Positions 18,416 through 21,355 of a stretch of 64,000 nucleotides of DNA are shown here, one piece after another. The position numbers and the translations under genes are program-made. This DNA is from Oceanispirochaeta sp. (lineage in GTDB: Bacteria > Spirochaetota > Spirochaetia > DSM-2461): NCBI GenBank assembly GCA_963663385.2, contig CAXXXD010000001.1, positions 512,001 to 576,000 on the forward strand. The letters are read 5' to 3'. Below the pieces are notes generated by a model, which worked only from the letters and a program-made list of their open reading frames with translations, was not told the DNA's origin and did not search any database. How positions within the stretch are numbered: position 1 is the stretch's first letter; each line of letters opens with the position of its first letter.

Positions 18416-19273
18416 TTACTGAGTAGATAATTCAGTATTTGTCCCGTTCTGAACTTTCGGGATATGACTGCTTATATTCGTCAGGGCATGCCCATTCTCC
18501 AGTAATGCTGTGGTGATATCCGGATTTGCTGCTTCCAGTCTCCCGACAGCTTTTTTAGCATCAAAAATATAATCCTTTTCTCCGCAAACATATGTCAGAG
18601 GGACTTTGAGGTTTTTCAGTTCCCTGTCAGTAAAAAGGGCCGGATTGTCCATCCGGTACCTGAAATGCCTGGTTAAAAGGACCTGGAATTGAACGACTTC
18701 TTCCGGAACCGGAGCTCCGTCAAACATAATAGACAATAATTTTCTTATTCCCTTTTCCCCCTGTATGGAATAGAAGATGGTTTTTATCAGGAATGATATT
18801 TTCGGCTTTACAATCCCGGTTGGAGCCAGAGCGATGACGCCGGCTGTTTTTTCCGGATAAGTCAGTGCATAGCGGATGACCGCCCACCCCCCAAGGGACA
18901 ACCCTCCCAGTAAAGGTTTATCCAGAGCCAGTCTATTAATGACTTCATCGAGCCATAGACTGAAAGTATCGCCTTTTGTATCAAATCTTACAGCTTCGCT
19001 TTTTCCCGGTTCTCCCGGAATATCTAAACTGTATACCCTGTAGCTCTGACTGAGTTTTTCCATATCTCCCATCCACGCCAGTGAATTGGATCCTGAACCA
19101 TGCAGCAACAGAAGGGGGGGATTTTTTTCCTCTCCTGCCGAAACAATGAATGTAGTGCCGTATTTTGTTTCTATGAAGAAATGCTCAACCAGGGGGAATT
19201 GCTCCAGCATGTTATTGTAAAACCGGAGAATGCAGTCTTTTCCCTTTTCTGTTCTGAAAATCTCTTTGTTCAT
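18416..19273 (-). CDS. Alpha/beta hydrolase
   Basis: LLLHGSG, GLSLGG nucleophile elbow, GEKD and NGH. Confidence 0.9.
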   Translation of the reverse strand: MNKEIFRTEKGKDCILRFYNNMLEQFPLVEHFFIETKYGTTFIVSAGEEKNPPLLLLHGSGSNSLAWMGDMEKLSQSYRVYSLDIPGEPGKSEAVRFDTKGDTFSLWLDEVINRLALDKPLLGGLSLGGWAVIRYALTYPEKTAGVIALAPTGIVKPKISFLIKTIFYSIQGEKGIRKLLSIMFDGAPVPEEVVQFQVLLTRHFRYRMDNPALFTDRELKNLKVPLTYVCGEKDYIFDAKKAVGRLEAANPDITTALLENGHALTNISSHIPKVQNGTNTELSTQ

Positions 19274-19332
19274 ATTTCTCTCCTATAAAAAGTCAATCAT
19301 AAGCCTATTAACAAGCTTACAATTGAACCGGA

Positions 19333-20445
19333 TTACCCAGTTTTTACGGCATTGAATGCAGCCGCCTGCATCTTCAAGTACTTATCATCCGGAACCATCT
19401 TCAACGGATCAAAGGGTTCACGGGTTTTCAATATGGAGTACACTACCGTACTCATCTTTCTTGCAGAGGCGATAATACTCGTGCCGCTGCCCTTGTTCTT
19501 CTTCATCGCTCTGTACTTCGTCATGATACGGTAATTGCCAGTCGTTTTCCGAGTTCTAACCATTCCCATAACACACTGAACAAATGCCGTTCTCAGTTCT
19601 ACAGCCCCTCTCTTTGTTATATGCCCATGATGAATCGTCTCATTGGAGTTCTGCACCCATGGTACAAGACCGGCATAAGCCGAATACTTCTTGGCACTGG
19701 CGTACCGCTTGATATCATCCGTATAGGCCCTAATAGTCGATGCCGTTATCAATCCGACTCCCGGGATCGTCTGCAATAACTGTACATCCTCATCTTCCTT
19801 TACAAGTTCCAGCAGGACTTTCTCTAACTGCTTGACCTGGTTCGAAACCTGATCTATCGTAGAAAGCAGCGGTTCTATCGCTTTGGCAGCGCTTCCGAAA
19901 CTCCTATGGTCCACGAGACCGATGAGGATGCGCTGCCTTTCTTTTTTACTCTGCAGCGCAGCTCTTTTTGTTTCAATTCCATACCCTAGAAGCAGTCCGT
20001 GAACCTGATTCTTCAAAGATACGACTGATTTAACAAGGATAGTTCTGGATTTAAGAACTCTACGGATATCCTCACTCTCCTGAGAACAAAGCTGTGATTC
20101 GGGAAGCATATCTTTTTCCAAGAACTCTGCTAGAGTTCTGGCATCATGCTTATCCGTCTTTTTCACTGATTCATTTACAACTTTGAATTTCAGTGTATTC
20201 ACAACCACCACCTCAATCCCTGCTAGCAATAGCTTGTTACGGAAGAACCGGGCATTTCCTGTTGATTCCACTGCAGCCCTAACATCAAGGCCCTCTTCTG
20301 TATAGGACACTGCTTTCTCAAGAAATGCTCTGTAACCGTCCTCAGAGGTCGGATACATTCCTGATTCACAAATGCTTCTATCATCACTCAGGAAACAGAC
20401 TGTTAACTGGGATTTGTGCAGATCCACTCCGATACTCATCTTCAT
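19333..20445 (-). CDS. IS110-family DEDD recombinase/transposase
   Basis: IGVDLHK, AVEST and KTDKHDA (DEDD); LQTIPGVG and YAGLVPWVQNS (Tnp domain Ser). AGGAG RBS supports a start at 20445 rather than 20547. Confidence 0.95.
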   Translation of the reverse strand: MKMSIGVDLHKSQLTVCFLSDDRSICESGMYPTSEDGYRAFLEKAVSYTEEGLDVRAAVESTGNARFFRNKLLLAGIEVVVVNTLKFKVVNESVKKTDKHDARTLAEFLEKDMLPESQLCSQESEDIRRVLKSRTILVKSVVSLKNQVHGLLLGYGIETKRAALQSKKERQRILIGLVDHRSFGSAAKAIEPLLSTIDQVSNQVKQLEKVLLELVKEDEDVQLLQTIPGVGLITASTIRAYTDDIKRYASAKKYSAYAGLVPWVQNSNETIHHGHITKRGAVELRTAFVQCVMGMVRTRKTTGNYRIMTKYRAMKKNKGSGTSIIASARKMSTVVYSILKTREPFDPLKMVPDDKYLKMQAAAFNAVKTG

Positions 20446-20459
20446 ACCTTCGCTCCTAT

Positions 20460-20635
20460 TGCCTAAAACAGCGCCTGTACGGTGAATTGATTCCATTCTC
20501 CTATCCGGTCTCGAAGACCATTGAATGTTTCGGTCACGGCTCTTCATTCTCCTGTACGGTCTCGGAGACCAGTAAAAATGGCGAACAGTAACCTGGCTGT
20601 TCTAAACGATGTTTAGAACATTGTATCAATCCACA
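20460..20635 (-). ncRNA. Candidate IS110 bridge RNA (boundaries approximate)
   Basis: About 210-nt non-coding end upstream of the recombinase: a 10-bp hairpin (20598-20620), then two GGTCT(C/T)CGAGACC hairpin modules carrying target-matching and donor-matching segments. Confidence 0.7.
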
Positions 20636-20699
20636 AGCCTATGAAGACTTTTTATCATTCCTCCTGTTAATGCCGAATAATTCTGGTAGGGGGCATTTC

Positions 20700-21155
20700 C
20701 TATTCATTGGAATTGTCCTGCTTCAATAGCTGATCAATTATCAGCAGCAATCTGCTTACCAGCTGGGGAGATCCGTGAAATATAATTTTCCCCTTCAGCT
20801 CTTCTTCAAAATACATAAAATCAAATCTGCCTTGACCGTCTTCCGGGAGTTTAGAGTTCATTACTGCATTTATAGTATTGGAAATTCTCATAGCCTGATC
20901 CTTTCCTCCAATAAAACAATCAATAACCGCTGTTGTAAGAGGGGACTCCCTGATTTCAGAACTCTCCGGTGTATATTGTGGTGATTCCCTGATCTCTTCA
21001 CCTGTATACACGCTTAAATCGTGTCCGCTTATCCTGTAACTTCTACCGACTTTTGTTGCCGTTAATTTGCCCTCCCGTATAAAACGCTGGACTGTTTTTT
21101 CATGAAGTTGCAGCAGTTCTGCTGCCTGTGCAACTGTATACCAGACTTCTTTCAT
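20700..21155 (-). CDS. Excisionase-like HTH (HTH_17) regulator
   Basis: YTVAQAAELLQLHEKTVQRFIREGKLTATKVGRSYRI; upstream minus-strand TTGACA-17-TAATGT. Confidence 0.85.
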   Translation of the reverse strand: MKEVWYTVAQAAELLQLHEKTVQRFIREGKLTATKVGRSYRISGHDLSVYTGEEIRESPQYTPESSEIRESPLTTAVIDCFIGGKDQAMRISNTINAVMNSKLPEDGQGRFDFMYFEEELKGKIIFHGSPQLVSRLLLIIDQLLKQDNSNE

Positions 21156-21355
21156 TCCTTAAAACTCCTTAATGAGTTGCGATAAGTAACATTAGGATGC
21201 ATTAGCCTTCTTGTCAAGAAGTTTTGGGGAATCTTTTGGGGGAAATGAAAAATAATACCTGTTGTTTGTATCAAATCATTTGATCGGGTTTATTGATCAT
21301 CTGAGGGGTTAGGCAAACAACGGATCTGAGGTATTTCTTATGTGAGGAATTCGGA

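Follow-up and report, generated by a model that had tools for sequence, protein, structure and literature searches.

How does a mobile element come to lie exactly between the Shine-Dalgarno sequence of a host gene and its start codon? The question is raised by an IS110-family insertion sequence in the 64,000-nt stretch of Oceanispirochaeta sp. DNA analyzed here, hereafter the window. The element is located in the leader between a gene encoding a 151-aa protein with an HTH_17 domain (20700-21155, minus strand) and an alpha/beta-hydrolase gene. That some IS110-family elements insert between a ribosome-binding site and a start codon is an old observation, for which the analysis below offers an explanation at the RNA level. 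The element, its gene, its two ends and the two halves of its target were delimited as follows.

19280..20660, minus strand: IS110-family insertion sequence, 1,381 bp (ten copies and an empty-site contig)
19333..20445, minus strand: transposase/recombinase gene, 370 aa (MKMSIGVDLHK...)
20646..20660, minus strand: left end of the element
20656-20660, minus strand: GAATG, predicted donor right half and partner of the loop 2 5' strand
20646-20655, minus strand: subterminal inverted repeat ATAAAAAGTC, 10 bp, perfect, pairing with 19285-19294
20649-20654, minus strand: TG-extended -10-like TAAAAA inside the left subterminal repeat
19280..19332, minus strand: right end of the element
19293-19326, minus strand: terminator-like hairpin, with the T-run of the right-end subterminal repeat behind it
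19291-19296, minus strand: -35-like TTGACT in the right end
19285-19294, minus strand: subterminal repeat GACTTTTTAT in the right end
19280-19284, minus strand: right-end AGGAG, rebuilding the Shine-Dalgarno sequence of the gene behind the element
20661..20667, minus strand: left half of the target, ACAGGAG (host Shine-Dalgarno sequence plus 2 nt), identical to the loop 1 3' strand
19271..19279, minus strand: right half of the target, spacer AGAAAT and ATG of the alpha/beta-hydrolase gene
18416-19273, minus strand: alpha/beta-hydrolase gene (CDS), ORF of 285 codons

The left flank reads ...TTAAC-AGGAG and is followed by GAATGATAAAAAG, while the right end reads ...TTTTTAT-AGGAG and is followed by AGAAAT-ATG of the hydrolase ORF. 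As the 5-bp sequence AGGAG is present at both junctions, the limits can equally be written 19285-20665. The empty site that the preliminary description had reconstructed from these flanks exists: a contig of the public run X6 joins window position 19279 to 20661, skipping 1,381 bases and leaving five letters that fit either side of the joint. In this public assembly the unoccupied site is ...TTAAC-AGGAG-AGAAAT-ATG, and one of the two AGGAG copies is carried by the element. The insertion is of the IS110 type, being site specific, devoid of terminal inverted repeats and without target duplication beyond the shared core. The 370-aa product agrees with the family assignment originally made from the letters of the sequence. 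It contains the Pfam domains DEDD_Tnp_IS110 (8.7e-21) and Transposase_20 (4.6e-19), and it scores 228 bits, for a cutoff of 140, against the NCBIfam model NF033542, "IS110 family RNA-guided transposase."

The host genome (5.3 Mb in four contigs) harbors ten copies that are 100% identical across their shared part; a single change was found in the left end of one of them. All ten are inserted at AGGAG-N6-8-ATG in the same orientation as the following ORF, which ranges from 98 to at least 497 codons. The left flank is ACAGGAG for eight copies, GCAGGAG for one and AAAGGAG for another. In the last two copies, the imperfect left half is accompanied by a perfect AAAA-ATG in the right half. In its right end, the element carries a terminator-like hairpin that could stop read-through into the gene behind it. 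A hairpin at the same place was seen by eye in relatives.

The non-coding left end is 215 nt long versus 53 nt for the right end. Within it we predicted an RNA fold with a 5' hairpin followed by two loops, composed of the following parts.

20598..20620, minus strand: 5' hairpin (segments A and B), 10 bp (inverted repeat and covariation)
20532..20593, minus strand: predicted target-binding loop (loop 1) with its closing stem P2 (RNAalifold and pair counts)
20582-20593 and 20532-20542, minus strand: arms of P2
20545-20580, minus strand: module 1, CATTTTTACT / GGTCTCCGAGACC / GTACAGGAGAATG
20571-20580, minus strand: loop 1 5' strand, CATTTTTACT
20558-20570, minus strand: loop 1 hairpin
20545-20557, minus strand: loop 1 3' strand, GTACAGGAGAATG
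20494..20527, minus strand: predicted donor-binding loop (loop 2, module 2), CATTCAAT / GGTCTTCGAGACC / GGATAGGAGAATG
20520-20527, minus strand: loop 2 5' strand, CATTCAAT
20507-20519, minus strand: loop 2 hairpin
20494-20506, minus strand: loop 2 3' strand, GGATAGGAGAATG

This fold was derived from an alignment of 22 distinct left ends by RNAalifold and by explicit counts of pairs. It comprises 36 pairs, with 89-92% of the cells paired and 16-17 pairs changed on both sides. Pairing falls to 27-47% when the partners are slid by one to three columns, and the covariation score was reached by none of 500 shuffles. P2 is paired in 96.6% of the cells with three pairs changed on both sides, and the local hairpins of modules 1 and 2 have three and two such pairs, respectively. 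G.U pairs are common on the transposase strand (for instance, UG at columns 97/154 in 11 of the 22 sequences). As these would be A.C on the opposite strand, the RNA is predicted to have the sense of the transposase gene. The hairpin and both modules of the preliminary description were thus recovered at their coordinates on the minus strand, and the folding and covariation analysis of the non-coding end that it had called for bore out the proposed order of 5' hairpin, target loop and donor loop. An Rfam search of positions 19000-21200 with E values up to 10 returned three chance-level matches and no bridge-RNA family.

The 5' hairpin has a competitor. Its A-B pairing shows double changes in seven of nine pairs and 71% of paired cells. 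The alternative helix B-C, between the 3' arm of the hairpin and a segment C (20463-20471) lying just before the ribosome-binding site of the transposase gene, shows double changes in eight of nine pairs and 86% of paired cells. Helix B-C would enclose both modules, and its competition with A-B may act as a switch, the RNA folding either as a bridge RNA or as an mRNA. Two other pairings were discarded. A long-range helix between the two palindromic hairpins is contradicted by their divergence within a single element (AGCCT..AGGCT versus GACCT..AGGTC in locus L027) and by the local covariation of each. CATTC/GAATG as a closing stem of loop 2 has no pair changed on both sides and 11 unpaired cells at variable columns. 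No separate stem closes loop 2. The invariant CA/UG at the foot of loop 1 could simply be a stem.

We gathered relatives whose proteins are 50-79% identical: species genomes, for the most part spirochaete assemblies, supplied 48 loci, metagenomes 80 and a plasmid of Thiospirochaeta perfilievii one. Their right end GGTTGACTTTTTATAGGAG is nearly invariant, and their left end GGAG-G(A/C/T)(A/G)(T/C)G-ATAAAA is nearly constant, the GATAAA being invariant among 22 homologues. Their subterminal inverted repeats measure 7-10 bp by eye. Among 92 parsed left flanks, 89 end in AGGAG and three in TGGAG. On the other side, 79 of 106 unique right flanks have, 3-14 nt past AGGAG, a start codon opening an ORF of at least 60 codons or one still open at the end of the locus; 19 lack such an ORF, and eight are cut by contig ends. 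The spacer between AGGAG and the first ATG, determined for 88 flanks, is 6 nt in 45, 5 nt in 13, 7 nt in 12 and 8 nt in 8. The range of 5-9 nt is odd for a recombinase with a fixed core.

Several of these loci depart from the common organization. The left end has decayed at one locus by a deletion fusing modules 1 and 2 (L047), and four decayed relatives lack the left end or module 1 (L031, L033, L052 and L058). A second left-end start 108-143 nt upstream at two loci (L017 and L018) suggests remnants or tandem insertions. The right flank of L107 contains another GGAATGATAAAAA left-end start within a few nucleotides, which looks like a near-tandem pair of elements.

As expected for bridge RNAs or seekRNAs, the conserved fold in the long non-coding end presents a loop that matches the target on both strands and another matching the two halves of the joined element ends. 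Loop 1 follows the target with both of its strands, the left flank with its 3' strand (NN-AGGAG) and the 4 nt and the ATG of the target gene with its 5' strand (CAT plus 4 nt). For the 90 unique left flanks, the base predicted by the RNA is found at position -7 in 72 and at position -6 in 83. Shuffling gave means of 34.6 and 45.7, respectively, and none of 5,000 shuffles reached the observed values. By hand count, the consensus flank agrees with the guide at -7 for 17 and at -6 for 18 of the 22 distinct guide types, and the agreeing types include the rare C, G and T guides at -6. No guide signal was observed at positions -8 and -9 of the same 90 flanks. The match of module 1 to an ACAGGAG target and of module 2 to an ATAGGAG donor, differing by C and T exactly where target and donor differ, was proposed initially and is borne out by the behavior of positions -7 and -6. 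One group of loci counts against this reading. A relative that is 79% identical has 12 copies in one spirochaete assembly (L011-L022), and most of their left flanks are TTAT-AGGAG, which fits the donor guide ATAGGAG better than the target guide TTT-AGGAG of that relative; at -7, most of these flanks follow the donor guide and not the target guide.

The 5' strand of loop 1 is 10 nt long and starts with CAT in all 22 aligned sequences; the larger homologue set was parsed with a regular expression requiring CAT and is therefore blind to the constancy of this triplet. The four bases next to CAT vary with the four that precede the target ATG, with 69, 7, 5 and 1 of 3,000 shuffles reaching the observed values at the successive positions. 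With one flank per guide (42 guides), 101 matches were counted for a shuffle mean of 75.7, and none of 5,000 shuffles reached this number. This signal is modest, as about 45-55% of the positions match. Fixing the register, which amounts to a 6-nt spacer, gives a score close to that of anchoring it on the ATG, and the two models are inseparable in these data since half of the sites have a 6-nt spacer. Registers shifted by one base or anchored on the ATG were reached by none of 2,000 shuffles. A register placing the last two nucleotides of the 5' strand on the final AG of AGGAG performed less well (16 of 2,000 shuffles) and was set aside.

In loop 2, ATAGGAG is identical, in every parsed relative, to the 7 nt with which the right end closes. 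The 5' strand opens with a complement to the 5 nt that begin the element, and both sequences change together: the left end/loop 2 pairs observed are GAATG/CATTC, GTATG/CATAC, GCATG/CATGC, GCACG/CGTGC and GAACG/CGTTC. Accordingly, alignment columns 6-10 pair with columns 167-171 in 99.1% of the cells, with two pairs changed on both sides. The preliminary description had been less sure of the 5' segments than of the 3' ones, given that the CATT segments might instead form stems with a downstream AATG. For loop 2, the changes of CATTC go with those of the element's first 5 nt, and no covariation links it to this alternative partner; for loop 1, CAT and the next 4 nt covary with the 4 nt and ATG of the target gene. 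Altogether, the pattern that it had read from a single element far exceeds chance: the ten host copies share one context, compensatory changes are seen in the hairpins, in P2 and between guides and DNA, and the matches to the left and right flanks each surpass those of all 5,000 shuffles.

The host genome allows occupied and free sites to be compared directly. It contains 1,462 ACAGGAG sequences, of which eight are at left junctions, ten are within the target loops of the copies themselves and 1,444 are free. Of the 1,444 free sequences, only 121 have N4-10-ATG behind them together with an ORF of 60 codons or more. Despite the rarity of such sites, every copy inserted at ACAGGAG occupies one of the ACAGGAG-N4-10-ATG-ORF type. 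The mean number of A residues in the 4 nt before the ATG is 3.1 at the ten occupied sites versus 1.2 at 88 free ACAGGAG ribosome-binding sites (Mann-Whitney, p = 4.5e-6) and 1.3 at 921 free AGGAG ribosome-binding sites. Each site was given a 6-point match score, with one point for A at -7, one for C at -6 and one for each A residue in the 4 nt before the ATG. Both sites with a score of 6 are occupied (none free), as are five of 22 scoring 5 (17 free), three of 81 scoring 4 (78 free) and none of 826 scoring 3 or less. Part of the site bias could stem from selection after insertion. The occupancy gradient is nevertheless what a two-part guide, composed of AC-AGGAG and of the UUUU complement with CAU, predicts, which argues against selection alone.

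The comparison of the flanks of copies and homologues, suggested at the outset as a check, therefore found the Shine-Dalgarno/start context at ten of ten copies and ACAGGAG exactly at eight. The ideal target first proposed, ACAGGAG-AAAA-ATG, has to be amended. Its succession of Shine-Dalgarno sequence, spacer and start codon holds. Its spacer does not, as 6 nt is the usual length and none of the 88 flanks has 4 nt. With the 6-nt spacer, the ideal site is predicted to be ACAGGAG-NN-AAAA-ATG.

Might RNA read only part of this site, or none of it? The NN-AGGAG half could be the only one read by RNA, the CAT-containing 5' strands being stem or linker and the association with an A-rich spacer and an ATG reflecting the survival of insertions at true ribosome-binding sites. 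The invariance of CA/UG at the base of loop 1, the match of only about half of the right-flank positions, the frequency of A-rich spacers before start codons and the variation of spacer length from 5 to 9 nt would all fit. We nonetheless consider this improbable. Shuffles that preserve composition do not reach the covariation of the 5' strand with its own flank (one flank per guide), covariation with DNA is clear for the corresponding strand of loop 2, and selection for functional ribosome-binding sites accounts poorly both for the gap in A content between occupied and free ACAGGAG sites of the same genome and for the perfect AAAA-ATG of the two copies whose left half is imperfect. Still less probable, in our judgment, is recognition of AGGAG and of the element ends by the recombinase protein itself, with the modules serving as protein-binding or regulatory RNA or DNA structures devoid of any guide role. 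AGGAG, ATAGGAG and the end sequences are invariant in the clade, which places most of the guide beyond the reach of covariation. Yet the few positions that vary do covary with DNA (-7 and -6, the 4 nt before the ATG and, in the left end, positions 2 and 4), and related enzymes are RNA guided according to the experiments reported in the accessible passages of Durrant 2024 and Siddiquee 2024.

The modules can also be taken for translation signals, the AGGAGAATG motifs then being real ribosome-binding sites and start codons of an N-terminally extended transposase. The window copy does contain ORFs of 404 and 387 aa, both ATGs are in frame, and some database gene calls are 387-397 aa long. Among 21 homologues, however, the triplet is in frame in only three for each module and is ATG in only 17 for module 1 and 10 for module 2, and the indels between modules and gene are not multiples of three. 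As neither frame nor ATG is conserved in these 21 homologues, we rejected the modules as translation starts, an interpretation that we hold to be extremely improbable. Gene callers extend the transposase to 387-404 aa from ATG-like ends of the guide strands (window 20494-20547); the guide reading explains these false N-terminal extensions, a point of use for annotation.

We therefore favor two-part guidance by RNA. Judging from the conserved fold and the covariation, the upstream end of this IS110-family element very probably encodes a two-loop bridge RNA on the transposase strand, and the element itself is, with the same high probability, active or recently active. The RNA would be produced from the left end and bound by the recombinase. 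In a circular form, the joined ends would bring the -35-like TTGACT 17 nt before TAAAAA, with TG one base upstream, and a transcript from this putative junction promoter would fold into the bridge RNA. No circle-junction joint was detected among the contigs of four public runs, and none of the public runs listed for this sequence is an RNA run. Loop 2 would hold the joined ends of the element, AUAGGAG matching the right end and CAUUC being the complement of the 5 nt with which the left end begins, while loop 1 would hold a ribosome-binding site and its start codon. Exchange somewhere within the shared AGGAG would leave the element between Shine-Dalgarno sequence and start codon, co-oriented with the gene. 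The right end would provide the host gene with a new AGGAG, now AT-AGGAG, and the RNA and the transposase gene would lie in the transcribed leader of that gene. As AGGAG is regenerated by insertion, the element could precede a gene without destroying its translation signal.

One close mechanistic precedent is IS621 (Durrant 2024; Hiraizumi 2024). IS621 shares with our element a recombinase with DEDD and Tnp domains, an RNA in a long left end upstream of the gene, the succession of 5' hairpin, target loop and donor loop, one guide per DNA strand in each loop, and a -35 in the right end that can be joined in the circle to a -10 in the left end. This last arrangement is described for IS110-family circles in passages of both Durrant 2024 and Siddiquee 2024. 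The guides total about 26 nt here versus the 28 quoted for IS621. Differences are equally marked. The order of the guides is reversed in both loops relative to the order given for IS621, the subterminal repeats measure 10 bp versus the 2-3 bp indicated in Durrant 2024, the donor loop is not closed by a stem of its own, and the target guides share no 2-nt core, unlike the overlapping pair of IS621. Furthermore, only the C-terminal domain of the 370-aa protein aligns to the transposases of IS621 and ISCro4 in the PDB (E about 1e-15).

Conversely, several features recall the IS1111-type seekRNA elements ISEc11, ISPa11 and ISKpn4, as presented in the accessible parts of Siddiquee 2024. In both, the complement of the top strand lies 5' of the match to the bottom strand, subterminal inverted repeats fall within the 7-17 bp of the IS1111 group, and the donor-binding nucleotides are in a multi-loop. 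In the IS1111 type, the non-coding region and its RNA are downstream of the transposase gene, whereas here they are upstream. Neither Escherichia nor Klebsiella was among the ten leading genera listed in a tblastn search of the protein against plasmids, which suggests no close relation to the plasmid-borne IS1111 members. A 2026 preprint reports that many bridge-RNA models deviate from IS621; its accessible passages mention neither guide order nor ribosome-binding sites.

Targeting of the Shine-Dalgarno/start region is in itself not new and has been known for decades for the mycobacterial IS110-family members IS900 and IS901 of Mycobacterium avium, which insert between Shine-Dalgarno sequence and start codon. 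In the published passages, the IS900 target motif is CATGNNNNNNTCTCCTT, the complement of AAGGAGA-N6-CATG, and the same preference is stated by Plague 2010, citing Doran 1997 and Inglis 2003. Going by this motif, given in the orientation of the element, IS900 is opposite to its target gene, unlike the co-oriented elements of the spirochaete clade; the comparison is with the published motif, and the available passages of the IS900 papers name no guide RNA. The nearest named relative is the ISLin1 family of Leptospira, with about 30% protein identity. Inspected by eye at one locus, ISLin1 seems similar in having hairpin-topped loops in a long end upstream of the gene, guides in the same reversed order and a right end that closes with CATAGGAG after TTGACA. 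Unlike our elements, it is flanked at this locus by a 36-nt tandem repeat and not by a ribosome-binding site.

Among the texts covered by a literature search, none describes a bridge RNA directed to translation starts, although the figures and supplements of the 2024 and 2026 papers may contain such target motifs. What is new is the explicit RNA programme, predicted from sequence, that is common to the whole spirochaete clade, together with a predicted architecture fitting neither published type: the RNA is upstream as in IS621, and the guide order and the 10-bp subterminal repeats are IS1111-like. Tentatively, and with more doubt than confidence, this clade, perhaps with its distant relative ISLin1, might be viewed as a third bridge-RNA configuration, a candidate intermediate in the proposed move of the RNA between the two ends, with the target loop locked on the translation-start signal. 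If this were true, only about six free positions would choose among genes, every insertion would fall within a transcribed 5' leader, and the element would owe its expression to the host promoter and supply the gene with a new ribosome-binding site.

A bridge RNA of this kind would aim at a motif that precedes hundreds of genes, a few variable guide positions picking a subset of them, and would place the RNA and gene of the element in a leader transcribed by the host. The combination of reversed guide order and upstream RNA would add to the natural bridge-RNA architectures on which engineering, and studies of how IS110 and IS1111 elements evolved, can draw.

Finally, a third hairpin, GGTCTC-nnn-GACC, lies inside the transposase ORF (19908-19920, minus strand) and resembles those topping the RNA loops. 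It encodes Gly-Leu-x-Asp. In 22 unique homologue DNAs, its codons are GGT in 22, CTC in 21 and GAC in 22, so that synonymous change is almost absent. ATAGGAG follows the hairpin in the window copy and in only eight of the 22 homologue DNAs. The near constancy of these codons makes the third hairpin a candidate that may act in the mRNA as a recombinase-binding or regulatory structure.
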